Positions 1-37,330 of a stretch of DNA of 64,000 nt are shown here, piece by piece (position 1 is the stretch's first letter; every line of letters starts with the position of its first letter). The translations under genes were made by a program, and so were the position numbers. Location of the stretch: contig CAXXKJ010000002.1 of NCBI GenBank assembly GCA_963675295.2, positions 1,056,001 through 1,120,000 of the forward strand, read 5' to 3'. The notes beneath the pieces are model-generated. The model was not told the DNA's origin. It did no database searches and saw only the letters and a list, made by a program, of their open reading frames with translations. This DNA comes from a bacterium. Lineage in GTDB: Bacteria; Electryoneota; Electryoneia; Electryoneales; Electryoneaceae.

Positions 1-492
1 CCCCAGATACAATGGTTTCACAACAACGCACTGATCAGTATAAAACGTCCCCAAGGTCGAATCCCACCCCCCGAGAGAACCTACGCGAATTGGATATTCT
101 GTGTTACCATGAAGAGAAAGCAGGATTGGATACCCACCTTGATGTGTAGGCGCACCGGCTCTTGGGTACCGAACAAACGCGTAGTGCAATCTCGAGGCGT
201 TGTTGTACTCGATGGAATGCCGGATCACATCAACTCTGTATTTCCTTCCTGTCCCATCTGTAGGATTGCAAAATCCTCCTTCAGTCTCGACGGCAAATCC
301 TGAACAGGTATTTGTCGGGAGGGCGAGCCGATGGTTGATCAAGGCATCGATTTCGGCTTGTGTCGGTGAATGGTTCAAGATGTCATACGGCGGATACATG
401 TCTGGTTCCCAATACCGGCCAAACCCATTGACATGTCCTCGTGGTCCGAAAAAACCACCAGCAAAGCGTCCGGGTTGGTTTGGCAGTATCAT
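1..492 (-). CDS. Partial (runs off the left edge) putative alpha/beta-hydrolase-fold protein
   Basis: Not in the ORF track. Manual translation from ATG at 492 is open to position 1 (MILPNQPG...YAFVRYP...YPILLSLHGN...CVVVKPLYLG). The start overlaps the upstream stop as ATGA. PILLSLHG resembles the hydrolase oxyanion-strand motif. Confidence 0.55.
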   Translation of the reverse strand, partial: MILPNQPGRFAGGFFGPRGHVNGFGRYWEPDMYPPYDILNHSPTQAEIDALINHRLALPTNTCSGFAVETEGGFCNPTDGTGRKYRVDVIRHSIEYNNASRLHYAFVRYPRAGAPTHQGGYPILLSLHGNTEYPIRVGSLGGWDSTLGTFYTDQCVVVKPLYLG

Positions 493-4118: not shown

Positions 4119-6290
4119 TCACAACGCCGACGTCACAAACCACGTCGCCTTGAGGCGAATGGTACGGTCGCCGGGGCGGGCGTTGAAAACGTCGGACTCG
4201 TCCCGGTTCTCGCCGTAGACCACGTAGAACCAACTTCCCGGGTGCCAGTTCCAGGCGAAGACGACGTTCGCCAGCAGTTGCTGCGCGTCGTCGTTGGAAT
4301 TGTCGACATACTGTAGCGTTCCGCGGATGGAGGTGTTCAGCACCGGCGACCAGTCGACGCCGAAACGCCAGACGCGGAAGTCGGTTTCGGATCCGTTCGC
4401 GATGTCGTACACCTGCCACACGTGCGACCAGCGCAGCGCGACGCTGAAGGTGAGGTTGTTGCGTGGCGTGAGATAGAGGTCGGGGTTGACGTAGACACGT
4501 TGCCCGTCCCTCAGGCTCTGATGCGCGGCTTCGAGGTAACCGTGCAGCGGTTTCCGGTAGTCGGATTCGACCCACGCGTTGTAGGACCATGAGTCGTACC
4601 GTTCGGTGACATAGTCGCCGAAATTGTCGGTCAGGATCATGCGGTCGGTGGTTTCGTCTTCGTCGAGGTAGTTGCGGCGGACCGTGTCGCCATAGTAGCC
4701 AAACACGCCCCAGCCCCACGTGTTGCGCAGGTGGGTGGCGTAGCCGAGCGTGGCGGTGCCGAAGCCGTACCGTGTGTCCTGATGCGACTCCTGGTACAGG
4801 TTGAGGTAGAACCGGTAGTTCTCGATCACGCCGTCCCGGGGGAACCAGCGCCGCTGCAGGCGTGCCCAGTTCCAGATCTGGTCGGAATAGCGTCCCCAGC
4901 CGAGATGATTGATCATGAAGTCGCGCCCGCGGAAGCCGGCCTCGTAGTTCATTTCCACCTGCCACGGACCCTCGACGAACGTTTCGCTTTCCACGCTCAC
5001 CGGCTGCTCATCCCAGCCCGGTACATCCGACACCGCGCCGATTAGCACCGTTTCGTTGCGCCGGCCCCAACGTAAGGTGGCGTCAAACGCTGCAGCGGAC
5101 ACGTTCTCGCCGTCCACATGCTGATGCGTGACCGTCCCGCCGAGGGTGTTGCGGTCCGAAACGCTCCACAGCGCCCGCGCGGCGAAATCGTCTTCGCGTT
5201 GCCCATCCTCGTTGAGGTTGCTGGCGTAAAGGCCGCTGGCTCGTACGGTGGGTTCCTGGCCGGTGACCCGGACACCATACACCGGATCGGCGATACGGCG
5301 GGTGTACACCAGTTGGATCGGCTGCTGCTGGAACAGGTCGAGTCCTTCGAGGAAAAACGGACGTTTCTCCGACAGAAAGACCGGATAGTCGGAGAGGTTG
5401 ATCACGATATCGTCGACATCCACCTGCGCGAAATCGGGCTGGTACGTTGCGTCCACCGACCACGACGGGTTGAGCACGATTTTCCCGGTGATCCCGACGT
5501 TGTCCCAGTCGTTTTCCGACCGCCACTCGTCAGCGGGGGAATCATCCCATCGCGCGACGGCGTGCGGGATCAGCTCGACGTGTGATGAGCCGGGAATGCC
5601 GGTCAGTCCGGTGACAGGAAGGAAACCGTCAATGCGGATCTGTGCGCGGCGGTCGAACGCCGGCAAGGTGGACCATTCCTGCGCGCGGTGGACGAAGCGT
5701 TCGAAGACCACGGTCCACGGTTTCCGTTCCGGGTCGCCGTGCCGGAAGGTGTCGAACGGGATCTCGAGCAACGCCTGCCAGCCGGTTTCGGTTTTCGCCA
5801 CCGATGAGCTCCAGACACCATCCCAGTTGCTGTCGCTGCTGTTGACGTTGGACATGGTCGCGTCGGTCTGAACGTTTCCCGCCGTAACCCGGAACCAGTA
5901 GCCGTTTTTGGCGTCGCCGAACGGGCTGATGCCGAAGGTGACGAAGTCGCTGCGGGAGGACCGGTCACGGCGTTGCAGGAGATGCGCGACGCTGTCCGGG
6001 TCGGGGTCGTCGCAAATGAAGAGCACATACAGCTTATCACTGTCATACCGCAGCCAGACACGGGTCGGGAAACGCGAAGATTGACCGTCGAACGGCTCGA
6101 TCTGGATAAAGGTGGCGGCTGTGGGCGGCGTGTTCAGCCATGCGGAATCGTGGTCGACCGGCAGAGTTGGCGCGGAGCCGTCCGGGACACGTTCCGCAGA
6201 CAGGGTGCCGTGAGACAGTTGCGCGGCAGCAGGAACCGTGACTACCGGGATCAGGGTCAACAGAGCGAGCAGGAACGTCAGACGATACAT
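4119..6290 (-). CDS. CBM9-like / DUF5916 family outer-membrane-associated protein
   Basis: Signal peptide from MYRLT; YDSDKLYV, WDGVW.S, EIPF, PDFAQVD.D...NLS.Y...EKRPFFLEG, YTRRI motifs. Confidence 0.85.
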   Translation of the reverse strand: MYRLTFLLALLTLIPVVTVPAAAQLSHGTLSAERVPDGSAPTLPVDHDSAWLNTPPTAATFIQIEPFDGQSSRFPTRVWLRYDSDKLYVLFICDDPDPDSVAHLLQRRDRSSRSDFVTFGISPFGDAKNGYWFRVTAGNVQTDATMSNVNSSDSNWDGVWSSSVAKTETGWQALLEIPFDTFRHGDPERKPWTVVFERFVHRAQEWSTLPAFDRRAQIRIDGFLPVTGLTGIPGSSHVELIPHAVARWDDSPADEWRSENDWDNVGITGKIVLNPSWSVDATYQPDFAQVDVDDIVINLSDYPVFLSEKRPFFLEGLDLFQQQPIQLVYTRRIADPVYGVRVTGQEPTVRASGLYASNLNEDGQREDDFAARALWSVSDRNTLGGTVTHQHVDGENVSAAAFDATLRWGRRNETVLIGAVSDVPGWDEQPVSVESETFVEGPWQVEMNYEAGFRGRDFMINHLGWGRYSDQIWNWARLQRRWFPRDGVIENYRFYLNLYQESHQDTRYGFGTATLGYATHLRNTWGWGVFGYYGDTVRRNYLDEDETTDRMILTDNFGDYVTERYDSWSYNAWVESDYRKPLHGYLEAAHQSLRDGQRVYVNPDLYLTPRNNLTFSVALRWSHVWQVYDIANGSETDFRVWRFGVDWSPVLNTSIRGTLQYVDNSNDDAQQLLANVVFAWNWHPGSWFYVVYGENRDESDVFNARPGDRTIRLKATWFVTSAL

Positions 6291-6706: not shown

Positions 6707-8031
6707 CACAGCTGTCCCATTGAGCGATTAGTGAATCATCTGTAAGCGTTGTGGTTGTTGGGTTTGAGGGGTGTTGTTTTTGAAATCGATTTGAACTTGG
6801 TGTTTGAGTGCATGTTTTCACCTTCAGCGTCGATTCGCGAGGTGGAAGATGCACACGGGCCGGATGGTGTTTTCTCAGTTGATGGACGTGGTGTCCATGC
6901 AGGATTTTCGCAGTTGTGTCGTCCGGTACGGCGGCGAGTGGCGGGTGCGGCGTTTTTCCTGCTGGGATCAGTTTCTCTGCATGGTTTTTGCGCAGCTGAC
7001 GCACCGGGAGAGCCTGCGTGACATCGAACTGTCGCTTCGAGCGGTTCAACGCAACCTGTACCACGCCGGGATTCGTGCGCGGGTGGCACGCAACACGCTG
7101 GCCAATGCCAACCGCCATCGGGACTGGCGCATCTGGCAGGACCTGGCGCTGGGCCTGATTGACCAGGCACGGGCGCTGTATGCCGGCGATCCGCTGGCCG
7201 TAGACTTGGCGGGCACGGTTTACGCGTTCGATTCGACGATGATCGACCTCTGTCTAACGCTGTTCCCGTGGGCGCCATTCGAACGCAGCCGCGGCGCGGT
7301 GAAGTTGCACACCATGCTGGATTTACGCGGAAATATCCCCACGATGTGCGTCATCACCCACGGGCGGGTGCACGACGTCACCGTGCTCGACTGGATCCCG
7401 TTCGAACCAGGCGCGATCTATGTGCTCGACCGCGGCTACGTCAGCTACGCACGCCTCTGGCGCATCCAGCAGGCAAGAGCGGGCTTTGTCATCCGCGCGC
7501 AGCGAAACCTGAAAGCGACCGTCGTCGCAACGCATCCGGTGGATTCGGCAACAGGTGTACTCGAGGATCAGACAATCGTGCTGGCGATCCCCCACAGCCG
7601 AAGCCGCTATCCGGATCAACTGCGGCGTATCTGCTATCATGACCGTGAAAACGACCGCACCCTGACCTACCTCAGCAACCTTTTCACACTGCCGGCACGA
7701 ACCATCGCCGATCTCTACCGGGAACGCTGGCAGATCGAATGCTTCTTCAAATGGATCAAGCAACATTTGCGCATCAAACGCTTCTACGGGACCAACAAGA
7801 ATGCCGTCAAAACACAAATCTGGATCGCCATCACCACCTATCTGCTCGTCGCGATCCTCAAAAAACAGCTCCAACTCGAACCCAGTCCCTACCAGATTCT
7901 GCAAATTCTGGGCATCTCTCTCTTCGAACGCGTGCCTATAAAACAACTATTTAGCAACAAGCACGCGACCCTGTTTACCGACCACGATTCCAACCAGTTG
8001 AGTTTCCTCAACTTTTAATGGGACAGCTGTG
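6707..8031 (+). mobile_element. IS4-family insertion sequence, 1325 bp
   Basis: Perfect 15-bp terminal inverted repeats CACAGCTGTCCCATT / AATGGGACAGCTGTG; direct target duplication GGTCCACCC at 6698-6706 and 8032-8040 (an 11-bp register is also possible). Confidence 0.93.
6849..8018 (+). CDS. IS4-family DDE transposase (DUF4372 N-terminus)
   Basis: FAQLTHRESLRDI, DSTMIDL, DRGY, and YRERWQIECFFKWIKQ (YREK motif). Confidence 0.95.
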   Translation: MHTGRMVFSQLMDVVSMQDFRSCVVRYGGEWRVRRFSCWDQFLCMVFAQLTHRESLRDIELSLRAVQRNLYHAGIRARVARNTLANANRHRDWRIWQDLALGLIDQARALYAGDPLAVDLAGTVYAFDSTMIDLCLTLFPWAPFERSRGAVKLHTMLDLRGNIPTMCVITHGRVHDVTVLDWIPFEPGAIYVLDRGYVSYARLWRIQQARAGFVIRAQRNLKATVVATHPVDSATGVLEDQTIVLAIPHSRSRYPDQLRRICYHDRENDRTLTYLSNLFTLPARTIADLYRERWQIECFFKWIKQHLRIKRFYGTNKNAVKTQIWIAITTYLLVAILKKQLQLEPSPYQILQILGISLFERVPIKQLFSNKHATLFTDHDSNQLSFLNF

Positions 8032-20235: not shown

Positions 20236-21534
20236 ATGGCTCAGAAAGACACCCGCTCTCCAGGTAAGAAGACCACGTCACGCGACCCGATCTCCCGGAT
20301 CTGGGATACGCTGAAATCCATGAAGTTCGCGATCATTCTGTTGCTGGTGATCACTGCGTTGACAGTGGTCAACCTGTTCGCGAATGAATTCATCGTGCCG
20401 GTGCGTGGCGGCGAACCCGGTATGGCGTATTCCGTCTACAACCAGGAGTATGGCGAACCGCGCGCGACCATCCTGACGATGCTGCAGATGTACTCGCCGT
20501 ATCGATCATGGTGGTACAGCGGCCTGCTCGGTTTGCTCACGCTGTCGTTGCTGGTCTGCGTTATCGACCGGACGGGACTGGTGTGGAAACTTGTCACGGG
20601 TACGCGATTCATCGCGGCGGAGAGTCAATACGACGGGCACGATCACTACGCGGAGTTGAAGGGTGACTCCGGGATGAAGGAGCGTGCGCTCGAAGCGATC
20701 CGTAAAGCCGGTTTTGCGGTCAACACCAAGGACACGTCGAAGGCGACGCTGGTTCATGGACGGCGGGCAGCCATCGCGCATTCCGGCGCCTATATCGTTC
20801 ACATCGGGTTCATCCTGCTGGTGATCGGCGGGGCGTTGATTGCGCGCGGTCAGTACCGTGAGCATGTCTCCGGCCTGCCCGGCGACCTGCTCGCGGCGGA
20901 CGAAAGCGCGTGGGGATTCAACGTTCGCGTCAACGATTTCGTAATCGAGTACTATCCGTTGCGTGATGGGCAGTATGTCTCTGTGGACGGCGGCCAGCGT
21001 GTCGGCCGGATCGACGACATGATGCCGGACAGCACGGCGAACGTGGAAATCCTCTGGCCGTCGCGTGGCTTCGAGGAAGGGGTCACGTTGGACCGGCTGA
21101 CCAACCGCATTGACCGCCGGTTTGGCGGGGGACGGCTGGACCAGTCGAACATTGCCGACTACATCGCAGACCTGACCGTGATCGAGAACGGGCAGGAAGT
21201 GATGAACAAGACCATCGAGGTGAACGCTCCGTTGCGCTACAACGGGTATCGTTTCTACCAGTCCTCGTTTAACGACACACGTACCGATGCGAACGGCACG
21301 TGGACGACGGTGATCGAGGTCCGCAAGGACAGCGGGTCGCCGTTTGTCTGGGCCGGAATCATCGTTGTCAGCATCGGCCTGATGCTCGGCTTGTATCTCG
21401 CCCCGCGCGACATCTTCGCCCGGATTGAAGAGGATGAAGGCGGGACACGTGTCCTGCTCGCGGGAGTCTCGAAGGGCCGAGCCGCGGAGTTCGAGCAACA
21501 GTTCCAAACGATGGTGCAGCGCATCCAAGCGTAA
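20236..21534 (+). CDS. resB: Cytochrome c biogenesis protein ResB/CcsB (System II)
   Basis: LKSMKFAI.LL, YRSWWY, conserved His in HIGFILLVIG, IEVNAPLRYNGYRFYQSS, C-terminal TM. Confidence 0.9.
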   Translation: MAQKDTRSPGKKTTSRDPISRIWDTLKSMKFAIILLLVITALTVVNLFANEFIVPVRGGEPGMAYSVYNQEYGEPRATILTMLQMYSPYRSWWYSGLLGLLTLSLLVCVIDRTGLVWKLVTGTRFIAAESQYDGHDHYAELKGDSGMKERALEAIRKAGFAVNTKDTSKATLVHGRRAAIAHSGAYIVHIGFILLVIGGALIARGQYREHVSGLPGDLLAADESAWGFNVRVNDFVIEYYPLRDGQYVSVDGGQRVGRIDDMMPDSTANVEILWPSRGFEEGVTLDRLTNRIDRRFGGGRLDQSNIADYIADLTVIENGQEVMNKTIEVNAPLRYNGYRFYQSSFNDTRTDANGTWTTVIEVRKDSGSPFVWAGIIVVSIGLMLGLYLAPRDIFARIEEDEGGTRVLLAGVSKGRAAEFEQQFQTMVQRIQA

Positions 21535-22098: not shown

Positions 22099-23421
22099 AT
22101 GGAACGTCTGGACGCAATTTTGTACGGGGTATCGTTTTACGCGTATCTCGTATCGTTTGTTCTTTTCATTCTGCACATCGCGCTGAAGAAAGATGTGCTC
22201 GGCAAGGTGGCGACGGGCCTCGGCGCGGTCGGCCTGTTACCACACACAGCGGCGATTATCGCTCGTGGCATTCAGCAGGGCCACGTGCCGTTGGCCAACA
22301 TGTACGAGTACATGGGGCTGATGGCGTGGATGGTCGTGCTTGGCTTGATCATCTTCATTATCCGTTACCGCAACACGCGAATCGGTGTGTTCATGATGCC
22401 GATTGCGGTGATGCTGCTGGTGACGGCGAGTTTGTTACCGTCGGATGTAAACCGTCAGTTGATGCCGGCGTTGCAGTCGACGTGGCTCGCGATTCACGTC
22501 TCGCTGGCGGCGCTGGGTTCGGGATCGTTCCTGATCTCGTTCGCGGCGGCGGCGCTTGTGTTGCTGACCTCAGGGTCGGACAGCGACAAGCTGCACAGCG
22601 CGAAGGTGAAGGAGCTGAAAGCGTTCTCGTGGCTTGAGTTCGGTCTCTTCTGGATCGGCCTGCCGCTGGTCGTGTGGTTGCTGCTCAGCATTGCCGGGCT
22701 GCTTCCGCCGCAGGTGAACATCGCCATGGCCGGGAATCAGCAGGGCGCGTTCACCTCGTTCGCGGTCGGCAAGGGCATGGACGCCAGCCTGCTTGGTGGA
22801 CTGGCGATCGGGCTGGGGATCGGGCTGGTGGTGACGGCTATCGCGTGGCCATTCATCCATTTCCGGCTGCCGCTGAAGATGCGTGGCAACGGGATGCACG
22901 AATTCATGACGATTGTGCTGGCGCTGTTGTTGTCCGCGATCCTTGCCGGATTCCTGGTCAAGAACGGGTCGATCACGCTGACGCCGCGCAGCTACCTCAA
23001 GATCTTCGAGTTCTTCGGGCCGGTGTTGGTGCTGAGCTGGGTTCTGACGCCGATCGTGCACGTGGTGATCGGCTCGAGTGCGGCTGGTTGGTTGCCGAAG
23101 ATGGGTGTCGCGCGTCCGGTGCTGCAGGAGATCTCGTACGCTTCGGTCGCGATTGCGTATCCGCTGTACACCGTCGGCGCGCTGTTCGCCGGTGCGATCT
23201 GGGCGGAACAGGCGTGGGGAACCTGGTGGAGCTGGGACCCGAAGGAAGTCGGCGCGTTGATCATCTGGCTGTTCTACACTGTCTTCCTGCACGCCCGCTA
23301 TCAGCGTAAGTGGTCGGGTGACCGTGCGGCGGTGTTGCTGGTGCTCGGAATGCTGTTTGTCTTCATCAGCTTCTTCGGGAACTACTTCTTCGGTGGGTTG
23401 CACTCGTTTGAGGTGACCTGA
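22099..23421 (+). CDS. ccsA: Cytochrome c biogenesis protein CcsA/ResC (System II)
   Basis: H.P.ANMYE, LMPALQS.WL.IHV, GAIWAEQAWG.WWSWDPKE (WWD domain), C-terminal GLHS. Confidence 0.95.
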   Translation: MERLDAILYGVSFYAYLVSFVLFILHIALKKDVLGKVATGLGAVGLLPHTAAIIARGIQQGHVPLANMYEYMGLMAWMVVLGLIIFIIRYRNTRIGVFMMPIAVMLLVTASLLPSDVNRQLMPALQSTWLAIHVSLAALGSGSFLISFAAAALVLLTSGSDSDKLHSAKVKELKAFSWLEFGLFWIGLPLVVWLLLSIAGLLPPQVNIAMAGNQQGAFTSFAVGKGMDASLLGGLAIGLGIGLVVTAIAWPFIHFRLPLKMRGNGMHEFMTIVLALLLSAILAGFLVKNGSITLTPRSYLKIFEFFGPVLVLSWVLTPIVHVVIGSSAAGWLPKMGVARPVLQEISYASVAIAYPLYTVGALFAGAIWAEQAWGTWWSWDPKEVGALIIWLFYTVFLHARYQRKWSGDRAAVLLVLGMLFVFISFFGNYFFGGLHSFEVT

Positions 23422-26970: not shown

Positions 26971-28191
26971 ATGAAGAAGACACTTCTGACGCTTTGTGCG
27001 GTCGTAGGAATTGCATCCATGGCAATGGCGTATTCTGGTGGCCCGCCCGCTGGCTATGCCGGCAACAACGGGTCGTATTGCACGCAGTGTCACAGCAGTT
27101 TCGGGTTGAATTCCGGTGATGGCATGCTCGATTTGACTCAGATGACCGAGTATACGCCGGGCGAGACCTACACGATGGAAGTGATGTTGAGTGACCAGGG
27201 TCAGAACCGCTGGGGTTTCCAAGTCGCGGCGGAAGATGGCGGCGGCAGTTTCGCCGGCATGTTCGCGATCACGGATCCGACGAACACTCAGCTGAACAGC
27301 AGTAACTATGTCAACCACACGTCAGCCGGCACCAACGCTGGTGATCCGAGCGGCAACATGTGGACGTTTGACTGGACGGCTCCGGCAGCTGGTACCGGCC
27401 CGGTGACGTTCTATGTGGCGGGTAACGCAGCCAATAACAACTTCAGCAGCTCGGGCGACTACATCTACGCGATCGAAATGACGGTGGATGAAGCGGCTCC
27501 GGCTTTGTATGGTCTGACCACGACCGGCATCAACACCATGATTCCGGCGTCCGGTGGCAACGTGACCTACAGCATTGATTTCTTCACCAACGTGCCGCAG
27601 TCGTTCAGCAACGTGAACTACTGGACAACGGTGACTCTGCCGGACGGCAGCGAATCCAACCGTCTTGCGTTCATCACGACGAATGTTCCGGCGAACGCCG
27701 ACATCTTCATTCCGATGATGGCGCAGGAAATTCCGTCGTTCGCACCGGCTGGCATGTACACGCACAACTCGTTCCTGGGCTACTTCCCGAACGCTGTGTT
27801 GATGGATTCGTTCAGCTTCGAGAAGTCGGCGAACGGTTCGAACTCGGTGCCGGTGCATGGTTGGGACGCGTCCGGTGAGTGGCTGGAAGTGACCGCCGAC
27901 GGCGAGTCGGTTGTCGACCTGCCGACCGAGTACGCGCTCAATGCGGCGTACCCGAATCCGTTCAACGCGATGACGAACGTTTCGGTGACGTTGCCGGAAA
28001 CCGCGGACATGAAGTTGCGCGTGACCAACCTGCAGGGTCAGGAAGTTGCGATCCTCAGCGAGGGTAGGCTCAGCGCGGGTCAGCATACGTTCAGCTTTGA
28101 CGCCGGCGACTTGAGCTCCGGCATGTACTTCATCCACGCGAATGTTCCGGGCAAGATGAGCCAGGTGCAGCGTGTAACACTGGTGAAGTAA
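26971..28191 (+). CDS. Reeler-like (choice-of-anchor V-like) CxxCH protein with Ig module and T9SS CTD
   Basis: AGGGAG RBS, signal peptide ending AMA, CTQCH, Y.PGETY, GFQ, WTAP..GTG.VTFY.AGN...GD.IY, YPNPFN...RVTLVK. Confidence 0.88.
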   Translation: MKKTLLTLCAVVGIASMAMAYSGGPPAGYAGNNGSYCTQCHSSFGLNSGDGMLDLTQMTEYTPGETYTMEVMLSDQGQNRWGFQVAAEDGGGSFAGMFAITDPTNTQLNSSNYVNHTSAGTNAGDPSGNMWTFDWTAPAAGTGPVTFYVAGNAANNNFSSSGDYIYAIEMTVDEAAPALYGLTTTGINTMIPASGGNVTYSIDFFTNVPQSFSNVNYWTTVTLPDGSESNRLAFITTNVPANADIFIPMMAQEIPSFAPAGMYTHNSFLGYFPNAVLMDSFSFEKSANGSNSVPVHGWDASGEWLEVTADGESVVDLPTEYALNAAYPNPFNAMTNVSVTLPETADMKLRVTNLQGQEVAILSEGRLSAGQHTFSFDAGDLSSGMYFIHANVPGKMSQVQRVTLVK

Positions 28192-28212
28192 CCACAAGCA
28201 GTATTGCGGTTT

Positions 28213-28248
28213 GAAAAACGCGGCCCTGCGGAGGTGGCCGCGTTTTTC
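28213..28248 (+). terminator. Intrinsic terminator
   Basis: GAAAAACGCGGCC...GGCCGCGTTTTTC. Confidence 0.75.
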
Positions 28249-28446
28249 TTGTCTCGGACGGTTAACACGGTCAGCCCGAAAGTGTCTTCAGAGAAGGGAA
28301 CTCCGGGAGTTCTGGCGTATCCGGATGTAGTACAACTTTCGAGCTCGATTGCCGATATTAGGTGTTCCTAACACAGGAAACGTGAAAAACGCGAGAATAC
28401 CGAACCTGCGTTGAATATCGCAGGACAGGTTTGAGAGGGAGGTGTG

Positions 28447-31400
28447 ATGAAGCGGAAGGTTCTGATGCTGGCGGCGGCATTGATGCTGGTCGGCAGCGCA
28501 TGGGCGACGGTGATCAACGTGCCCGCGGATTACAGCACGATCAATCAGGCGATTGACAACGCGGTTGCCGGTGATACGGTGCTGGTCGCGGCGGGAACGT
28601 ACGCGGAATCCGTCGATTTCGACGGCAAGGAACTGGTCGTGCGTGGCGACGTCAACAACCCGGCGTTGGTCGTAATCGATGCGTCTGGACAGAGTGTTGG
28701 TGTGCGTCTCGACGGTGGTATCAGCAACGCGGCGGTGCTGGAAGGCTTCACGGTTGATGGCGCGACGAACAACATCTATGTCAACACCAATTCGAATCCG
28801 ACGGTCCGTCACAATGTGATCAGCAACGCGACCGACTATGCGATCTATGTGCTCGGCGGTTCTGGAATCAACGTTGATGGCAACAGCTACACTGGAAACG
28901 CGTTCGATGCGATTCGTGTCAACAACAACCGCATCAGCACCAGTGTCAATCTGACCAATGACGGCGTCCCGTATCATTTCCTCAACGACTGCTACGTGTG
29001 GGCATATGCAGGCGACCCGTTGGCAAAGCTGACCATTGATCCGGGCACGCAGTTGCTGTTTCAGGCGGACGTTGGTTTGCAGATCGGTACGCTGAGTGAT
29101 CGTCGCGGCGAGCTGCACGCCGTCGGTACGATGGCCGAGCCGATTGTGTTTGATGCGATCACCGGCGTCCCGGGTGAATGGGCCGGCCTGGTGTTCGGCA
29201 ACGGCAGCGACTACGCGCTGAGCGAGTCGACCCTGGACTGGTGCGAGATCAACAACGCCGGTGGACCAGGCCTTGGCGGCTTGGCCGGGATCGTGCTGGA
29301 TGACACCCAGCAGCCGACGATCAGCAATTGCACGATCACAAACAGTGCATCGCACGCGATGCTGCTCACCAACGGCGCGCATCCGGCGTCGATCACCAAC
29401 CTGACGGTTTCCGGCAACTCGCCGGACGCCATCGGCATCAACGGCAACACCTACTTCGACGACTGCTATTTCGATTCGGAAGGCGTGCCGTATGAAGTGC
29501 TCGGCAACCTGTTTGTCTGGGATTACAACGGTAATCCGATTCCGCGGATGACCATCGCGGCGGGCAACACCTTCCAGTTCACCGACGGCACCGGCATCCA
29601 GTTCGGTACACTGAGTGATCGTGCCGGTGAATTGTATGCGGTGGGTACGTTGAGCGAGCCGATTACGTTCACTTCTTCGTCCGGAGCGACGAGCGGCTGG
29701 AACGGTCTGCTCTTCGGCAACGGCAGCGACCACGACGAAGCCCAGTCGACGATGGAATACTGTGTCGTCGAATACGCCGGGCAGGAAGGCTGGGGATACC
29801 CGGCGGGTATCATCAGCGATGACACCTTCCAGCCGACGATCACCAACAGCGCGATCCGCAACAACGATGGCTACGCGGCGTTCTTTGACGGCAAGGCGTT
29901 CGCGACGATGTCGAATAACATCATCAACGGCAACACGATCAATGCGATCGGTGTTTCCGGTCACACGATCGATTACGATCTGACGTGGCTGGTCAACGAC
30001 GCGCCGTACCACGTGCTCGGCGACATTTACGTCTGGGATTACAGCTCGGCGACGTCCGCGCCGCGTGTCACGGTTGAGCCGGGCACGACGATCCTGTTCG
30101 CGGAAACCTTCGGTCTCGACATTGCGAACATCGCGGATCGTTGGGGCGAATTGTACGCCATCGGTACCGAGTCCAACCCGATCACCTTCGGCGCGATCAA
30201 CGGCATGCCCGGTGGCTGGGGCGGCATTCAGTTCAACGCCGGCAGTGACCACAGCAGCGCGAACTCAGTGCTGGACTATTGTGAACTCAAGCATGGCGGT
30301 CACCCGCGCTGGAACGGGGCGGAGGCGACGGTCAGCTCGTTCGCGACGGATGAGCCGAGCATCAGGCGCAGCACCTTCAGCGAATCGGGCGCGTATCCGT
30401 TGTACATCCATTCGGACGCCAGCCTGACATTGATCAACAATACCTACGTTGACAACGCGATCGAAGCGATTGCGTTTGAAGGCCGGACGTTGTCGGACGA
30501 CTACACCATCCAGAACGATGGCGAACCGTACCACATCTTGTCCTACGTGTACGTGCAGCGGACGTCGGTGCCGTACCCGACGCTGACGATTGAGCCGGGC
30601 GCGACGCTTCAGTTCGCCCAGGCGGCCGGGCTTCGTATCGGTGCCGGTTCCCCGTATGCCGGGATGCTGAACGCTGTCGGTACCGAAAGCTCGCCGATCA
30701 CGTTCACCTCGTTCACCGGCACCAGTGGTGGCTGGGGCGGCATACTGTTCGACAACGGGTCGGATACCGGAGACGCCGTCTCGACGATGGACTGGTGTAA
30801 CGTCAACCGTGCCGGCTACATCAGTTCGCTCGGGTTCGAGGCGAACATGCGTTGCTACCTGACATCCCAGCCGACGATCAGCAACAGCAGCTTCAACGGC
30901 TCGTCAGTGGACGGTCTCGTCCTCGATGGTTACCTCGGTGAGATCAGCGACAGCCGTGCGAGCCTGAACCAGGCGGACGGAATCGTGGTGCAGAACTCGA
31001 CGGTGACGCAGCTGATACGTGTCGAGGTGTCCGGCAACACGGATGACGGCCTCACGGTCGCCAACTCGCCGGACCTGATCGTCGGCGGCAATGCGGTCTC
31101 GACGTGCCAGTTGTACGGCAACGATGGCTACAATTTGCGTGTCGTCGCGGGCACGGACACGATCGCGGCGGGTTACAATTACTGGGGAACGCTCGTCCCG
31201 GCGCAAATCGAAGCTTCGATCTATGATTTCTTTGATGATCCGGCGCTTGGTGTGGTGGATTGGGAACCGGCGGTCAATGTCGGCACCGGCCAGAACGTGG
31301 TCATCGAGATGACGCCCTACCACAACCCGACGGTGATCGGTCCCGCTGGTGGCTACTTCCGCTTCACTGCCAGCATTGAGAACCAGGAAACGTTCACCAC

Positions 31401-32007
31401 GCAGATCGACGCGTGGTCGGAGTTCATCCTGCCGAACGGCTCGGTGTACGGACCGGTGGTGCTGTACGAAAACCTGAACCTTCCGGCGGGGTACACGTTG
31501 AGCGTATCGCCGTTCCAGGAAGTGCCTGGCTATGCGCCGACGGGTACGTACCAGTTCGTGGCGAAGGTGGGTGATTATCCGGCGGCGATTGATTCGTCAA
31601 GCTTCGAGATCCTGAAGATCGAGTTGAGCGCGGCGGATCGCTGGTTCCAGGGCTGGAACAATTACGGTTGGTTCGGCGCGGACGACGCGGACAAGATCGC
31701 GGAGCTGGAAGCGGCCGAAGCCACGGCAGACCTGCTGCCAACGGAGTTCGATGTGGGCAATGTCTATCCGAACCCGTTCAACGCGATGACGAACCTGCGG
31801 CTCGCGTTGCCGGAAGCCGCGCCGGTGAGCGTGGTGGTGTACAACGTCACCGGGCAGCGGGTGATGACGGTTGCGCGTGGCGACATGGCGGCGGGGTATC
31901 ACACGTTGACCGTGGACGGTTCCCGTCTCGCAAGTGGGCTTTATTTCGTCAGTACCGAGATCGCCGGCCACATGAACAGTGTGCAGCGGATGGTGTTGAT
32001 GAAGTAA
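28447..32007 (+). CDS. Right-handed beta-helix repeat protein with Ig module and T9SS CTD (paralog 1)
   Basis: VPADYSTI..AI...GDT.LV..GTY N-cap; four LTI.PG...F...G..IG...G.L.AVGT...PI.F...W.G repeats; YPNPFN...RMVLMK. Confidence 0.9.
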   Translation: MKRKVLMLAAALMLVGSAWATVINVPADYSTINQAIDNAVAGDTVLVAAGTYAESVDFDGKELVVRGDVNNPALVVIDASGQSVGVRLDGGISNAAVLEGFTVDGATNNIYVNTNSNPTVRHNVISNATDYAIYVLGGSGINVDGNSYTGNAFDAIRVNNNRISTSVNLTNDGVPYHFLNDCYVWAYAGDPLAKLTIDPGTQLLFQADVGLQIGTLSDRRGELHAVGTMAEPIVFDAITGVPGEWAGLVFGNGSDYALSESTLDWCEINNAGGPGLGGLAGIVLDDTQQPTISNCTITNSASHAMLLTNGAHPASITNLTVSGNSPDAIGINGNTYFDDCYFDSEGVPYEVLGNLFVWDYNGNPIPRMTIAAGNTFQFTDGTGIQFGTLSDRAGELYAVGTLSEPITFTSSSGATSGWNGLLFGNGSDHDEAQSTMEYCVVEYAGQEGWGYPAGIISDDTFQPTITNSAIRNNDGYAAFFDGKAFATMSNNIINGNTINAIGVSGHTIDYDLTWLVNDAPYHVLGDIYVWDYSSATSAPRVTVEPGTTILFAETFGLDIANIADRWGELYAIGTESNPITFGAINGMPGGWGGIQFNAGSDHSSANSVLDYCELKHGGHPRWNGAEATVSSFATDEPSIRRSTFSESGAYPLYIHSDASLTLINNTYVDNAIEAIAFEGRTLSDDYTIQNDGEPYHILSYVYVQRTSVPYPTLTIEPGATLQFAQAAGLRIGAGSPYAGMLNAVGTESSPITFTSFTGTSGGWGGILFDNGSDTGDAVSTMDWCNVNRAGYISSLGFEANMRCYLTSQPTISNSSFNGSSVDGLVLDGYLGEISDSRASLNQADGIVVQNSTVTQLIRVEVSGNTDDGLTVANSPDLIVGGNAVSTCQLYGNDGYNLRVVAGTDTIAAGYNYWGTLVPAQIEASIYDFFDDPALGVVDWEPAVNVGTGQNVVIEMTPYHNPTVIGPAGGYFRFTASIENQETFTTQIDAWSEFILPNGSVYGPVVLYENLNLPAGYTLSVSPFQEVPGYAPTGTYQFVAKVGDYPAAIDSSSFEILKIELSAADRWFQGWNNYGWFGADDADKIAELEAAEATADLLPTEFDVGNVYPNPFNAMTNLRLALPEAAPVSVVVYNVTGQRVMTVARGDMAAGYHTLTVDGSRLASGLYFVSTEIAGHMNSVQRMVLMK

Positions 32008-32030
32008 GGCAATACTAACACGACGGATTC

Positions 32031-32062
32031 AGCGCGGCCATCCTGCGATGGTCGCGTTTTTT
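32031..32062 (+). terminator. Intrinsic terminator
   Basis: GCGCGGCCATC...GATGGTCGCGT followed by TTTTT. Confidence 0.7.
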
Positions 32063-32241
32063 ATTGTTTGTTTTACAACTATCTAGGCCGAATTAAAATC
32101 CTAAAAACGTCCTCTCCGAGTCGCTATCTCTTTTTGTGAATTACAGTTACAAGTTTGTTAGTCAAAACGGAATCCGTCTAAATTGCTAACAATGCACCAT
32201 AGCAGTGATCATACAAAGTCCGGTAGACAAGGGGGAAAAGG

Positions 32242-35200
32242 ATGAAGAATTTAGTGGCAGGTTGCGTGCTGATCCTGATATGGGCAGGAGTGGCCGGTGC
32301 AGTCACGGTCACCGTGCCCGGGGAATTCAGCACCATCAACAGCGCGATCGATAACTGCGTATCCGGTGACACAATTCTGGTCGATCCGGGGAGCTACGAT
32401 GAAATTGTTACTTACGATGGCAAGGATCTGGTCATCATCGGCGACGTTGCCGATCCGAGTACAACCGTGATCTATGGTACCGGCAGCACGTATGCGGTTC
32501 GAATGAACAACACTGAAACCTCCGCCGCAGTGCTGGAAGGCTTCCAGGTGGATGGATCAACTTACTTGATCCAGGCAGGCAATAGCGCAAATCCGACGGT
32601 CCGTGATTGTATCCTGTCGAACGCGACAGCCTACCCAGTGTATTTGACGCAGGGATCCGGTATCAATCTCAGCGATAACGAGTACACGAACAATGATACC
32701 GAAGCGATTTATGTCGCGGCGGGCACGATAGGTGAAGATGTAAACTACACCAATGATGGCTTGCCGTATCACATGTTCGGGACAGTGTCCGTGTGGGATT
32801 ACAGTGGTAACCCGATTCCGCGCCTGACCATTGATCCCGGTTGCGAACTGTACTTCGCCACGGGAACGGGATTGCAGATCGGCAACACAGCGGATCGCGG
32901 CGGTGAGCTGTACGCGGTCGGGACGGTGTCACAACCGATCACTTTCACCGCGTTGACGGGGATTTCAGCTGGATGGGCCGGGATTCATTTTAACAATGGC
33001 AGCGACTACCTGTTGTCGGAATCGCGAATGGAATACTGCATTGTCGACAAGGCGGGCGGAACCGGCTGGGGCCATGCAATTGGTGTGTTGTTGACGGAAA
33101 CGCTGCAGCCTACGTTCGTCAACTCGCAAATCTCAAATTGCGCGGGGCATGCGATGCGGCTTAACAGCAAGGCGCACTTCGCCTACATCGACAACGTCAC
33201 GCTGACCAACAACGAATTCAACACCATCGCGATTCCAGCGACAACATTCAGTTCTGACTTCACGTACGATTCAAACGGCATTCCATTCGAGGTGCTGGGG
33301 GATCTCCAGGTCTGGTCGTATGTCGGCAACCCGATTCCGCGTCTCACGATTGAGCCCGGAAACACGTTCATGTTCGCAACAACTGCTGGAATCCAGATAG
33401 GTTCATCCGCAGACCGTGGTGGTGAACTGTATGCCGTTGGAACCTACAACGACCCGATCGTGTTCACTGCGTCTTCTGGGATCCCCGGAGGATGGGACGG
33501 AATCTACTTCGCCAACGGCAGTGACTACGAGACGTCCACCTCAAGGATTGAATTCTGCCTCATTGAGTATGCTGGGAATACTGGCTGGGGTTACCCGGCG
33601 GGGATTGTCTGCGATGATACCGATGAGCCGTTTGTTACGCACTCGATGTTCGAGAACAACGACGGCTATGCTGTCTGGTTGCAGGACACGGCGATGATCA
33701 CGATGACTGGGAATGTGATCGAGGCGAACACCTACGATGCGGTCGGTGTATCTGGCAGAACGATTCAGGATTCGTTCACCTGGCCGCGGGGTGATGTGCC
33801 GTACCACGTGATGGGGCTGTTCTATTTCTGGGATTACGACACAGCGGTGGAAGCTCCGACCATGACGATTGAACCGGGTACGGAGATCCTGTTCGCGGAA
33901 ACCATGGGATTGCAGATCGGAGCAGCTGCAAACCAGTGGGGCGAGATTTACGCAGTCGGCACCGCCCAGGACCCGATCATTTTTGGTGCGATCAACGGCC
34001 AGCCCGGCGGTTGGGGCGGCATCCTGTTCGCCAACGGGTCGGACCACAATGGGTCGGAATCCACACTGAGCTACTGCCAGTTTAACGATGGCGGCTATGC
34101 CCGCTGGTACTCCGTGCAGGCAACTGTCAGCTCCGCGACCACGACACAGCCGTCCATCAGCAACTGCGCGTTCAACGAATCGAGCGTCTATCCGCTCTAC
34201 ATTCACTCGGACGCCAGTATCAGCATTACTCCGGACAACACGTTCACCGGGAACGGAATTCAGGCCATCGGATTTGAGGGGCGAACCGTTGGCAGTGACT
34301 ACGTCATTCACAACGCGGGATTCCCATATCATGTGATTGATACGATATACATCCACTATACAACCAACGCGCCGTATCCGACGCTGACCATCGAACCCGG
34401 CGTAGAGCTTCGTTTCAGCGAGGATGCAGGGATGCGGATCGGGAGCGGTTCCAGCTACGCGGCACAACTGATGGCAGTGGGGACGGAGCAGATGCCGATC
34501 ACGATGACATCGTTCAGCGGTGCGCCCGGTGGATGGTCTGGTCTGTATTTCACCGACGCGTCGGATGCGGACGGTGTCGAGTCGGCGATGAACTGGTGCT
34601 ATGTCAAATATGCCGGTGCGAACCTGGCAGGATTCGGGTCCACCGCCGGTATCTACCTCTACTACACCAGCCAGCCGACGCTGGACAACTGTGCCTTCAC
34701 CTTCTCCGGCGATCTGGGGATGAAGTTCAGGAATTACACCGGCGTCATTGAGGATTGCCGTGCGAGCCTGAACGAGGGCGACGGTGTCGAAGTCACCAGC
34801 AGCGATTTCCAGCTTGTCCGTGTTGAGATGAGCGGCAACGGTGACGACGGTATCGAACTTGTGAACACTCCCGATCTGACCATCGGTTCCGGTCCGGGGG
34901 CGACCTGCCAGATTTTCGGCAACACGGGATATAACGTGCGCGTCGAAGCAGGCGCGGACAGCATCTCGGCCCGGTACAACTACTGGGGGACGCTGGTGCC
35001 GACTGAGATCGAGGCATCGATCTATGACGAACAGGATGATCCGGGCCTCGGACGTGTGAAATGGTATCCGGCGGTCGATATCGGCCAGGGTCAGGATGTG
35101 TTTATCACCATTACTCCATTCCACACGCCAACCCTGATCGGCCCGGGCGGCGGGTATTTCCGTTTCCAGGGTACGCTACACAATGATGAATCGTTTACGG

Positions 35201-35817
35201 TGCAGGTCGATGCGTGGACCGAGTTCATTCTGCCCAACAGCACGGTCTACGGGCCGGTCGAACTGTATCAGGATATCAACATGCCGGGCGGGTACACGAT
35301 CAACGTGGCACCGTTCCAGGAAGTGCCCGGCTATGCGCCAAACGGAACCTACCAGTTCGTCGCCAAGATCGGTACGTACCCAACAGCCACCGATTCATCC
35401 AGCTTCGAGGTGATCAAGATCGAGTATCCGGCGGCGCAACGCTGGTTCTCGGGCTGGCAAACGTACGGTTGGTTCGGTGATGACGAGTTCGAGGAGGAAG
35501 TTGTGCTCGCGATGTTGACCGGCGGTGAGCTGTCCACGGAACTGCTGCCGACGGAGTTTGTGGTCGGGGAGGTGTATCCGAACCCGTTCAACGCGATGGC
35601 GAATCTGAGCATTGCGTTGCCGGAAGCCGCGCCCGTGAGTGTGGTGGTGTACAACGTGACCGGGCAGAGGGTGATGACGGTTTCCAGCGGCGACATGGCG
35701 GCGGGGTATCACACGTTGACCGTGGACGCGTCTTCGTTGGCGAGTGGATTCTATTTCGTCCGCACGGCTGTGCCGGGGCAAATCAATGCGGTGCAGAAGA
35801 TGGTGGTGGTGAAGTGA
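32242..35817 (+). CDS. Right-handed beta-helix repeat protein with Ig module and T9SS CTD (paralog 2)
   Basis: Colinear with 28447-32007 over its full length. Confidence 0.9.
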   Translation: MKNLVAGCVLILIWAGVAGAVTVTVPGEFSTINSAIDNCVSGDTILVDPGSYDEIVTYDGKDLVIIGDVADPSTTVIYGTGSTYAVRMNNTETSAAVLEGFQVDGSTYLIQAGNSANPTVRDCILSNATAYPVYLTQGSGINLSDNEYTNNDTEAIYVAAGTIGEDVNYTNDGLPYHMFGTVSVWDYSGNPIPRLTIDPGCELYFATGTGLQIGNTADRGGELYAVGTVSQPITFTALTGISAGWAGIHFNNGSDYLLSESRMEYCIVDKAGGTGWGHAIGVLLTETLQPTFVNSQISNCAGHAMRLNSKAHFAYIDNVTLTNNEFNTIAIPATTFSSDFTYDSNGIPFEVLGDLQVWSYVGNPIPRLTIEPGNTFMFATTAGIQIGSSADRGGELYAVGTYNDPIVFTASSGIPGGWDGIYFANGSDYETSTSRIEFCLIEYAGNTGWGYPAGIVCDDTDEPFVTHSMFENNDGYAVWLQDTAMITMTGNVIEANTYDAVGVSGRTIQDSFTWPRGDVPYHVMGLFYFWDYDTAVEAPTMTIEPGTEILFAETMGLQIGAAANQWGEIYAVGTAQDPIIFGAINGQPGGWGGILFANGSDHNGSESTLSYCQFNDGGYARWYSVQATVSSATTTQPSISNCAFNESSVYPLYIHSDASISITPDNTFTGNGIQAIGFEGRTVGSDYVIHNAGFPYHVIDTIYIHYTTNAPYPTLTIEPGVELRFSEDAGMRIGSGSSYAAQLMAVGTEQMPITMTSFSGAPGGWSGLYFTDASDADGVESAMNWCYVKYAGANLAGFGSTAGIYLYYTSQPTLDNCAFTFSGDLGMKFRNYTGVIEDCRASLNEGDGVEVTSSDFQLVRVEMSGNGDDGIELVNTPDLTIGSGPGATCQIFGNTGYNVRVEAGADSISARYNYWGTLVPTEIEASIYDEQDDPGLGRVKWYPAVDIGQGQDVFITITPFHTPTLIGPGGGYFRFQGTLHNDESFTVQVDAWTEFILPNSTVYGPVELYQDINMPGGYTINVAPFQEVPGYAPNGTYQFVAKIGTYPTATDSSSFEVIKIEYPAAQRWFSGWQTYGWFGDDEFEEEVVLAMLTGGELSTELLPTEFVVGEVYPNPFNAMANLSIALPEAAPVSVVVYNVTGQRVMTVSSGDMAAGYHTLTVDASSLASGFYFVRTAVPGQINAVQKMVVVK

Positions 35818-35858
35818 GGCCGGTCATGAGTGATGAGTAGTGAGTGATGAGCAACTGG

Positions 35859-35896
35859 GAACAACTGCCACAGACTTCGGTTTGTGGCAGTTGTTC
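35859..35896. repeat. REP-like hairpin (TGCCAC.GAC family), possible terminator
   Basis: GAACAACTGCCACAGAC-TTCG-GTTTGTGGCAGTTGTTC. Confidence 0.7.
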
Positions 35897-36112
35897 ATGT
35901 GCTTGTTAAAGTGGTCAATCTGTAAGATTTAGGATAGGACAATATATCCTAATTAGGGGAGTAGAACATATCTAAATAATTGATTATTAATAAAATAGTT
36001 GAATTGATCCGTTGGCAAAGTTTCGTCTTTCACGCTTGCAGGGCTATGGATGCCGCCAGTCCCATGTTACACTGATTGCCTACCCCAACTACCACAGAGG
36101 AGCGAGCGAATC

Positions 36113-37330
36113 ATGAGAGTCATGGGATTGGTGTTGATTTTACTCTTGCTGGCGGGTGGCGCCCATGCCTACCCCAATTTTGTGCCCTCCGGTTATGCGT
36201 ACGATCCACCTGACAACGATACCTGCCGGAATTGTCACAGTAGCTATCCGTTGAACTCCGGCGACGGCACGTTCAGCAGTGACCTGCCGGACGCTTGGGA
36301 ACCAGGCGAATCCTACACCATTCACCTTGTGTTGACGGACAATGTTACGCGGGCTGGATTCCAGGCGACGTTTAAAGACATGAGCAATCAGTTTGCGGGT
36401 CAAGTGTATGTCGTGGATGCCCAGCACACCCAGCTTTCCGGTACCTACTACATCAACCAGACCTCATCAGGCACCTACACCAGCTCCAACGGCGGCGAAT
36501 GGGATATCGGCTGGACAGCTCCGGCGGCAGGAACAGGTGATATCCGTTTCTGCATCTCGGCTGCAGCGTGCAATGGCACCGGCGGAACCAGCGGCGACCA
36601 CATTTACGGCTGGCATATCATCATCCCGGAAGCCACGCAGGATCCGTATGGTTTGACCATCACCCCGATCGTTGACACGGTTCCGGCATCCGGTGGCAAC
36701 ATCACCTACAGCGTCGAGTTCTTCACCGACCTGCCAAACCCGTTCAATGGCGTGAACTACTGGACCACGGTTACCATGCCAGACGGTGCGGAAACAGGCC
36801 GTCTGTTCTTCATCACCGCGAATATTCCGCCGTACGCGGATATCTACATTCCGTTGATGGCGCAGGAGATCCCATCGTATGCGCCAGCGGGTACCTATAC
36901 CCACAACGCGAAAATGGGCAACTATCCCATGCCTGTACTGATGGACTCGTTCACGTTTTCCAAGTCAGCGACCGGAACCGACGCCGAGCCGGTAACCAGT
37001 TGGACCGCGAGGGGAGATTGGGCGGAGGTCACGGGCGAAGAATCGCAGGGGGTGGACATTGCGGCTGAGTTCGCGTTGAAAGCAGCCTATCCGAATCCGT
37101 TCAATGCAGCGACGAGAGTATCGGTCACGTTACCGGAAACCGCGGATTTGGATCTGTTGGTCTACAACGTGATGGGCGAAGTGGTTGCGGATCTCCATCA
37201 CGGTGTGCAGACCGCTGGTGCCCATTCGTACACGCTGGATGGCACGAATCTCAGCTCGGGTTTGTATTTCGTGCAGGCGATTGTGCCGGGCAAGCTGAAC
37301 CAGATTCAGAAGGTTACGCTGTTGAAGTGA
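36113..37330 (+). CDS. Reeler-like CxxCH protein with Ig module and T9SS CTD (paralog of 26971)
   Basis: GAGGAG RBS, signal peptide ending AHA, CRNCH, GFQ, WTAPAAGTG, GDHIY, YPNPFN...KVTLLK. Confidence 0.88.
   Translation: MRVMGLVLILLLLAGGAHAYPNFVPSGYAYDPPDNDTCRNCHSSYPLNSGDGTFSSDLPDAWEPGESYTIHLVLTDNVTRAGFQATFKDMSNQFAGQVYVVDAQHTQLSGTYYINQTSSGTYTSSNGGEWDIGWTAPAAGTGDIRFCISAAACNGTGGTSGDHIYGWHIIIPEATQDPYGLTITPIVDTVPASGGNITYSVEFFTDLPNPFNGVNYWTTVTMPDGAETGRLFFITANIPPYADIYIPLMAQEIPSYAPAGTYTHNAKMGNYPMPVLMDSFTFSKSATGTDAEPVTSWTARGDWAEVTGEESQGVDIAAEFALKAAYPNPFNAATRVSVTLPETADLDLLVYNVMGEVVADLHHGVQTAGAHSYTLDGTNLSSGLYFVQAIVPGKLNQIQKVTLLK

Follow-up and report, generated by a model that had tools for sequence, protein, structure and literature searches.

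Could a haem site like that of cytochrome f occur on proteins sent to the bacterial cell surface? The question is raised by a 64,000-nucleotide stretch of contig CAXXKJ010000002.1 (assembly GCA_963675295.2) from a bacterium of the Electryoneota, referred to here in its full length as the window. Positions 26971-37330 of the window are occupied by four same-strand genes, P0001, P0003, P0004 and P0002. The two outer ones, P0001 and P0002, encode proteins with a predicted signal peptide, a single CxxCH motif close to the mature N-terminus and a C-terminal sorting domain (CTD) of the type IX secretion system (T9SS). An earlier, sequence-only reading of this DNA had proposed that both are haem c proteins matured in the periplasm, possibly ligated by the amino group of an N-terminal Tyr as in cytochrome f, and exported by the T9SS as redox or haem-sensing proteins. 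The present analysis confirmed what had been observed there and supported the interpretation as far as sequence and model reach. P0001 and P0002 are probably cell-surface electron carriers of a large, catalogued but unstudied family. The reading towards which we lean makes them mono-haem c cytochromes with a Reeler fold, which System II would mature and the T9SS display as one-electron carriers, with the N-terminal amine as the favoured putative sixth ligand.

Family, CxxCH motif and mature N-terminus

The two proteins share 51% identity over 394 aa (E 5e-139), in agreement with the paralogy described before. Their N-terminal ~150 residues scored 120.4 (P0001) and 84.1 bits (P0002) against the NCBIfam entry NF041895, "choice-of-anchor V" (cut-off 42), and by these profile scores both are members of that family, with NF041894, the MXAN_6652 family, as its companion entry. 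They share its layout, in which the domain stands right after the signal peptide and a sorting signal closes the protein; other members end in dockerin or FlgD_ig-type modules, whereas P0001 and P0002 end in a T9SS CTD. Five NF041895 paralogues were identified in the genome, all above the cut-off (55.7-123.6 bits) and all ending in T9SS CTDs. An exhaustive HMMER search returned 6111 representatives at 50% identity with E<=1e-3 and 3410 with E<=1e-10, and the size of the family is given as a lower bound of at least 6111 representative homologues. Named carriers belong to the Poribacteria, Eisenbacteria, Zixibacteria, Calditrichota, Ignavibacteria, Gemmatimonadota, Acidobacteriota, Planctomycetota, WOR-3, Krumholzibacteriota and Armatimonadota, and the family is present in 48 of the 79 genomes of the organism's own phylum. 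A protein atlas returned only bacterial clusters that are labelled 'Reeler domain-containing' or unnamed (score 0.92). The domain is already catalogued, and the window adds members to it, not a new family. NF041895 itself carries no functional assignment; that its members bind haem, fold like cytochrome f and are constrained at the N-terminus is proposed in the present analysis. New in this reading are the constraint on the N-terminus, the confinement of the domain to that end of the protein, the lack of any other conserved ligand and the fusions to pyrroloquinoline quinone (PQQ)-dependent dehydrogenases.

Conservation of the motif His, on which the sequence-only reading had made its haem assignment depend, was complete: the His and both Cys are 100% conserved in 258 aligned homologues. 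The two Cys are separated by two residues in 223 sequences, three in 21, four in 13 and five in one, with the CH pair constant. Accordingly, 257 of 259 sequences hold C-x(2-4)-CH, the exceptions being a fragment truncated N-terminally inside the motif and the C-x5-CH sequence. CX3CH and CX4CH are known variants of the haem c site. Since CxxCH was found in 49 of the 3591 open reading frames (ORFs) of the genome and the motif is invariant among the homologues, its presence in P0001 and P0002 is not regarded as chance. Haem c attachment is favoured over a plain disulfide because the His stays invariant after the second Cys while the spacing drifts. A conserved CxxCH or CxnCH in proteins with signal peptides assigned by rule would place the family among the c-type cytochromes, and we consider it likely that haem c is bound.

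The same residues could serve a protein without haem. The Cys would then form a disulfide, or the Cys, the His and Asp163 a metal site, steadying the arm of a Reeler-type adhesion or glycan-binding module, and P0001 and P0002 would be ordinary T9SS adhesins. Eukaryotic Reeler domains are indeed not haem proteins, and the sandwich resembles those of cohesins and pilins too. Nevertheless, a disulfide leaves the His after the second Cys (258/258, at spacings 2-5) unexplained, and adjacent Cys and His rarely share one metal ion. Together with the genomic evidence given below, this makes the absence of haem improbable in our judgement.

The mature N-terminus was analysed in the same alignment. The residue at -1 is A, G or S in 96% and that at -3 is A, V, L or S in 84% of the 258 homologues, and the (-3,-1) rule together with a hydrophobic core holds at exactly the aligned site in 216/247. 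Position +1 is aromatic in 211/247 (Y in 120, F in 87, W in 4). It is followed by S (87%), any residue, G (87%), P (95%) and P (83%), giving the consensus [YF]-S-x-G-P-P, and in 228/247 the first Cys stands at mature position 18 or 19. Mature N-termini are normally free to vary; that of this family is among its best-conserved positions. The expectation that residue 1 would be conserved was therefore borne out as an aromatic residue behind a small one, and not as an invariant Tyr. The resemblance of YPNF...DLPDAWEP to cytochrome f, pointed out earlier, is confined to P0002 and is not a family-wide feature, the consensus being the one given above. Furthermore, the domain is single and N-terminal, directly behind the presequence, in 277 of 277 proteins of 175-1923 aa, including 96 multi-domain ones. 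This strictly N-terminal position fits a free alpha-amino ligand, which would demand it.

Side chains that commonly come to mind for the sixth position were sought in the alignment. No second conserved His was found: outside the motif, His reaches 50% at position 116 alone (H 69%, Q 31%), and His or Gln at this position showed no association with the type of the +1 residue (146:66 against 24:12). There was likewise no column with Met at 10% or more. Given haem, the N-terminal amine is the sixth ligand that we would choose, with some caution.

Several observations count against this choice. Position +1 is non-aromatic (S, N, R, H, L or D) in 36/247 homologues, and it is Leu, Phe and Asp in the three other genomic paralogues, so that two of the five are non-aromatic. 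Tyr166 (98%) and Asp163 (100%) are conserved and are possible alternative ligands. The conservation figures describe the best-scoring 258-277 of at least 6111 homologues, and remote members may be less conserved. An alternative in which haem c is attached and the sixth site is empty, or is filled by Tyr166 or another side chain, draws on the same data, since the lack of a conserved His or Met suits a five-coordinate haem equally. The protein would then be catalytic, sensing or ligand-binding (peroxidase-like, or a binder of O2, NO or sulfide), and the conserved N-terminal arm would be a mere structural lid. We regard this as distinctly less probable. Since the alpha-amino group is present whatever the side chain, the amine is compatible with variation at +1, and neither the fixed spacing between N-terminus and motif (228/247) nor the N-terminal position (277/277) is required by an empty site or a side-chain ligand.

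Fold and comparison with cytochrome f

AlphaFold2 models of the mature domains reached mean predicted local distance difference test (pLDDT) values of 95.2 for P0001 and 93.1 for P0002; over the first ten residues the values were 88 and 81, respectively. For P0001, the top Foldseek match was the Reeler domain of F-spondin (E 1.6e-8), and cytochrome f came at rank 17 (E 1e-4). When Foldseek's 999 candidates were realigned with VIA-align, Reeler structures scored Z 12.6-13.0, and 15 cytochrome f entries were found, most at Z 10.0-11.0 and two at 9.4-9.7. The best Reeler match (2zot_A, Z 13.0) has a root-mean-square deviation (rmsd) of 3.0 A over 124-127 residues with 23-24% identity, and the Reeler match extends to model residues 6-12, so that the motif lies within it. 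The cytochrome f alignments have rmsd values of 3.0-4.1 A over 135-145 residues and run from residue 1 or 2 of the model and 1 of the chain to ~157 and ~250.

A Foldseek-independent search covered 48,161 representative chains. For P0001 it gave Reeler (3coo) at Z 11.0, cytochrome f twice at 10.4 (ranks 2-3; 138-143 residues aligned, model 1..157 to chain 1..252) and cohesin at 9.9. For P0002 it gave cytochrome f first at Z 10.7 (142 residues aligned from residue 1), followed by Reeler at 10.5, cytochrome f again at 10.4 and cohesin at 9.4. Cohesin and integrin-type sandwiches align from model residue ~24-30 over 103-127 residues, and an alignment from residue 1 of the model to residue 1 of the chain was obtained for cytochrome f only. 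The comparison with cytochrome f and Reeler called for earlier thus returned both. On the models, the domains adopt a predicted Reeler beta-sandwich that also corresponds to the large domain of cytochrome f with the N-terminus apparently in register, as judged from the alignment end points. That only cytochrome f superposes from residue 1 also speaks against a sixth site that is empty or taken by a side chain.

Sequence comparison linked the domain to Reeler. A single-sequence search of PDB sequences gave chance-level matches only (E>=0.17), whereas the family profile matched human Spondin-1 at E 4.3e-6. This match is limited to the beta-sandwich (profile positions 54-154) and leaves the CxxCH arm outside. 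Pfam Reeler (PF02014) matched the mature domain of P0001 at 29.9 bits (E 9e-7; cut-off 21) and paralogue L003 at 23.6 bits, and no match to the P0002 domain was found at E<=1; at this threshold PF02014 matches just 38 of 142 members. The Reeler-like domain seen earlier in both proteins therefore holds for P0001 by Pfam and by fold, and for P0002 by fold and not by Pfam. On these sequence matches, the choice-of-anchor V sandwich is a true relative of the Reeler domain (PF02014; F-spondin 2zot and 3coo).

The likeness to cytochrome f (PetA; 1ctm, 1q90_A, 2jxm_B, 4ogq_C) consists of an all-beta sandwich with a single CxxCH near the mature N-terminus, an aromatic residue 1 immediately behind the signal peptidase cut, no conserved His or Met that could fill the sixth position, and a large domain that superposes at Z 10.4-11 and rmsd ~3.1 A over 135-145 residues from residue 1 of both. 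The differences are considerable. Identity in the structural alignments is 10-17% and sequence similarity was not detected; cytochrome f has an inserted small domain, whereas the domain of P0001 and P0002 comprises ~155 residues without insertion; and where cytochrome f has a C-terminal membrane helix, P0001 and P0002 have a spacer followed by a T9SS CTD. Counted in the mature protein, the first Cys is residue 17-19 here and, by the account of the sequence-only reading, residue 21 in cytochrome f. Cytochrome f sits in the b6f complex, of which the present family is not part, and the family occurs in non-photosynthetic phyla. P0001 and P0002 thus fall outside the PetA family on sequence and architecture, and what is proposed is a possible functional likeness to cytochrome f at the haem.

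Certain results weaken this comparison. The AlphaFold2 models contain no cofactor. The Z of 10.4 between P0001 and cytochrome f lies within 1 Z of the 9.9 for cohesin, which counts as a tie by the tool's own measure; cytochrome f stands apart from the cohesins because it alone covers the N-terminal arm, and not by its Z. Short helices are present in the N-terminal arm of cytochrome f, whereas the modelled arm of P0001 and P0002 is a coil rich in Gly and Pro that makes a helical turn only at CxxC. In a whole-genome search at E<=10, none of the five paralogues matched PF16639 (Apocytochr_F_N), the sole match in the genome being a pentahaem ORF (E 0.43), and no cytochrome f chain was found at E<=10 when the family profile was compared with PDB sequences.

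Fusions, maturation and export

Domain fusions were surveyed in 96 long homologues, comprising 21 longer than 711 aa and 75 of 331-1923 aa. A PQQ-dependent sugar dehydrogenase (PF07995) is fused in 12 of the 21 and in one more (P0176) among the 75, or 13/96 in total. A fusion to COX1 was not seen among the 21, which is a weak negative because the search behind them was word-limited. Other redox fusions join the domain to a cupredoxin (P0036), to a quinohaemoprotein amine dehydrogenase domain (P0143), and to a SoxA/TsdA plus CCP_MauG (dihaem) cytochrome module (P0044). The motif and the N-terminal arm are kept in all of them. The record of P0044 (466 aa) is labelled as a Methanosarcinales archaeon, and the family may reach archaea. 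The remaining partners are Ig-like spacers, dockerins, FG-GAP, CHRD, beta-lactamase and beta-helix modules.

Redox fusions of this kind suggest a role in electron transfer. In the quinohaemoprotein layout, a cytochrome stands N-terminal to a PQQ dehydrogenase and accepts the electrons. The cytochrome domains of quinohaemoproteins and of enzymes of the cellobiose dehydrogenase type are built-in electron acceptors of extracellular dehydrogenases, and in the PF07995 fusions the choice-of-anchor V domain, N-terminal to the dehydrogenase, takes the position of such a cytochrome. Unlike these systems, P0001 and P0002 are themselves without an enzyme domain, and the fold and haem attachment proposed here (c-type, with an N-terminal arm) differ from class I cytochrome c and from the haem b sandwich of cellobiose dehydrogenase. 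We judge electron transfer rather more probable than catalysis or sensing. The fusion of P0044 to a dihaem peroxidase-type module would suit a catalytic haem with another sixth ligand, whereas the recurrent PQQ dehydrogenase fusion is the classic arrangement of an electron-accepting cytochrome. The census also touches the adhesin explanation from two sides: most partners (Ig-like spacers, dockerins, FG-GAP, CHRD) are typical of surface proteins, and the recurring PQQ dehydrogenase, cupredoxin and cytochrome partners argue against a module without haem.

The machinery for haem attachment was identified nearby. Genes for ResB and CcsA (Table 1) lie ~3.5 kb upstream of P0001, with recJ and a GPP34-like gene between, and a second ResB/CcsA set is present elsewhere in the genome. 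As ResB and CcsA are present and CcmE was not found in the genome, maturation was assigned to System II. A CcsA gene was also observed 3-4 kb from a family gene in three same-genus genomes. The cytochrome c synthase domain PF01578 occurs in 40 of 41 family-carrying genomes across many phyla, the exception being a 3.0-Mb metagenome-assembled genome, which speaks against a family without haem. Within the organism's own phylum, PF01578 is found in 79/79 genomes whether or not they carry the family, so this co-occurrence is uninformative there, a reservation on the haem reading. A further reservation comes from the gene neighbourhoods, in which no conserved redox partner was found: ORFs with at least two CxxCH numbered 4 among 659 neighbours at 80 loci. 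The family being without a conserved redox operon is also what an adhesin would lead one to expect.

For export, both CTDs scored above cut-off against PF18962 (P0001 36.7, P0002 36.0 bits; cut-off 27) and TIGR04183 (35.0 and 32.0 bits; cut-off 23), in line with the sorting domains recognised before. The search for the T9SS machinery covered PorU (NF033707, 708.7 bits; cut-off 420) and SprA (TIGR04189, 830.1 bits; cut-off 200), and from these two components the system is complete-looking. A hidden Markov model (HMM) made from 26 CTDs recognised a T9SS CTD-like domain at the end of 394 of 3591 greedy ORFs (11%); the cargo set is unusually large, with at least nine such proteins in the window. 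Eight CTD-bearing ORFs contain CxxCH, namely the five paralogues, one 643-aa ORF and two pentahaem proteins (C2:414612-417035 and C2:425569-428586), whose CTDs scored 36.2 and 37.6 bits, above the Pfam cut-off. One of the pentahaem ORFs lies 3.6 kb from paralogue L005 (C2:409481-410974), and one shows a sub-threshold MtrC/MtrF-like match. The pentahaem ORFs are candidate T9SS-exported multihaem cytochromes, and T9SS-routed cytochromes appear from these sequences to be a theme in this organism.

The motif and its conservation, the modelled fold, the sorting signals and the genes for the machinery were shown here; from them we infer the following pathway. The Sec system would export the precursor, and signal peptidase I would cut directly before Tyr. 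The ResB/CcsA synthase would then join haem to the two Cys of CxxCH, with the motif His as proximal ligand. The conserved arm [YF]-S-x-G-P-P would fold back over the haem, and the alpha-amino group of residue 1 would be the likeliest sixth ligand, as in cytochrome f. The folded holoprotein would be handed to the T9SS through its CTD, and the haem head would be displayed on the surface or released from it. There it may act as a one-electron carrier between envelope or extracellular partners, for which the pentahaem T9SS cytochromes, surface enzymes and minerals are candidates.

We know of no relatives of cytochrome f outside the b6f complex, and its all-beta fold and N-terminal amine ligation stand alone to our knowledge. 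Full-text literature searches, judged by titles and abstract openings, returned no work on 'choice-of-anchor V' or MXAN_6652, none linking the Reeler domain to CXXCH, heme or a bacterial cytochrome, none on a cytochrome f-like protein, homologue or origin, and none on T9SS-routed cytochromes. If the family binds haem in the same manner, non-photosynthetic bacteria would hold either a structural relative of cytochrome f or a remarkable instance of convergence on it. The animal Reeler domain would be tied to a redox ancestor, and thousands of surface electron carriers, which screens for multihaem or classical cytochrome c may overlook, would be added. The T9SS would also be shown to carry holo-cytochromes. 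A bolder extension, speculative and in our view unlikely, is that choice-of-anchor V is the missing bacterial kin of cytochrome f, a widespread mono-haem cytochrome of Reeler fold ligated by its N-terminal amine from which the large domain of PetA was recruited. It would then be a general surface electron-transfer module (with the T9SS, PEP-CTERM/MYXO-CTERM-type anchors or dockerins) in more than 10 mostly uncultured phyla, and the built-in cytochrome of secreted PQQ dehydrogenases.

Gene models, neighbours and surroundings

The features of the locus are listed in Table 1. The gene positions, the mature ends behind AMA and AHA and the CTQCH and CRNCH sites reported earlier were all recovered from the sequence.

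Table 1. Features of the P0001-P0002 locus and of the upstream cytochrome maturation genes (positions in the window)
Feature	Positions	Strand	Description
ResB/CcsB, System II cytochrome c biogenesis	20236..21534	+	PF05140 184.4 bits
CcsA/ResC, System II cytochrome c synthase	22099..23421	+	PF01578 114.6 bits
P0001	26971..28191	+	406 aa; signal peptide, choice-of-anchor V domain (Reeler-fold, CxxCH), spacer, T9SS CTD
P0001 Sec signal peptide	26971..27030	+	predicted cleavage between AMA and Y; read from sequence, rule-based
P0001 mature N-terminal domain (NF041895, Reeler fold), putative mono-haem cytochrome head	27031..27501	+	HMM, AlphaFold2, VIA-align
P0001 CTQCH, putative haem c attachment site	27079..27093	+	mature residues 17-21
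P0001 beta-rich spacer	27508..27948	+	common to C-terminal parts of P0003 and P0004
P0001 T9SS type A C-terminal sorting domain	27949..28188	+	PF18962, TIGR04183
P0003	28444..32007	+	1187-aa T9SS cargo; repeated right-handed beta-helix (NosD-like) modules
Terminator-like hairpin 3' of P0003	32031..32058	+	12-bp stem and T run; pattern match
P0004	32242..35817	+	1191-aa P0003 paralogue; beta-helix T9SS cargo
P0002	36113..37330	+	405 aa; architecture as P0001
P0002 Sec signal peptide	36113..36169	+	predicted cleavage between AHA and Y; sequence and family conservation, rule-based
P0002 mature N-terminal domain (NF041895)	36170..36634	+	HMM, AlphaFold2, structural match
P0002 CRNCH, putative haem c attachment site	36224..36238	+	mature residues 19-23
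P0002 T9SS type A C-terminal sorting domain	37088..37327	+	PF18962, TIGR04183
Terminator-like hairpin 3' of P0002	37370..37397	+	12-bp stem; pattern match

The N-terminus of P0001 reads MKKTLLTLCAVVGIASMAMA before and YSGG after the predicted cleavage site, and that of P0002 reads MRVMGLVLILLLLAGGAHA before and YPNF after it. Both sites were judged solely by the (-3,-1) rule and family conservation, and in P0001 a cleavage two residues earlier, between SMA and M, likewise satisfies the rule. A Shine-Dalgarno-like GGGAGAG or GAGGAG precedes the proposed starts of both genes. The gene call for P0001 in the deposited record (390 aa) begins at Met17; as this start would remove the signal peptide, position 26971 was preferred.

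The two genes between the paralogues encode beta-helix proteins. P0003 scored 96.3 bits against PF13229, 51.8 against PF05048 and 34.2 against PF18962, and P0004 scored 97.5 bits against PF13229 and 38.0 against PF18962. Each consists of about four repeats of a ~190-aa module (PYH..., TIEPG..., GEL.A.GT..., PI.F..., G.W.G) that scores as beta-helix or NosD-like. Neither protein contains CxxCH, and neighbours of this kind would also suit a pair of ordinary adhesins. The region before the CTD and the CTD itself are 33% identical to those of P0001 (P0001 residues 213-406 against P0003 986-1187, E 3e-31). Two fusions give some support for a functional link between the paralogues and P0003/P0004: P0249 joins a choice-of-anchor V domain to beta-helix modules of the P0003/P0004 type (pairwise E 2e-7), and P0265 joins one to a PF13229 beta-helix (precomputed Pfam list).

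Only a close relative (L012, 90% identity) shares the beta-helix neighbourhood, and the recurrent neighbour clusters at other loci reflect Poribacteria synteny without redox genes. No common motif was found in the regions upstream of the P0001-P0004 genes, and promoter-like matches numbered 3 against a shuffled mean of 5.7, below expectation. A 749-aa ORF with five CxxCH (L082:3088-5337), from a metagenome-assembled genome of the Ignavibacteria, stands directly upstream of a family gene (5607-6092), and its C-terminal end is 41% identical to the CTD of P0003.

Elsewhere in the window, the gene directly upstream of P0001 (25941-26633), which overlaps the end of recJ, encodes a GPP34 (Golgi phosphoprotein 3-like) protein (PF05719, 156.8 bits). 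At the start of the window, where G+C falls to 0.44-0.53, a DDE transposase (DUF4372 and DDE_Tnp_1) was identified at 6804-8018. On the minus strand, a 1201-aa ORF at 58892-62497 had no Pfam match at E<=1e-5 and shows a weak, short match to the SprA model (E 5e-6) at 61325-61480.

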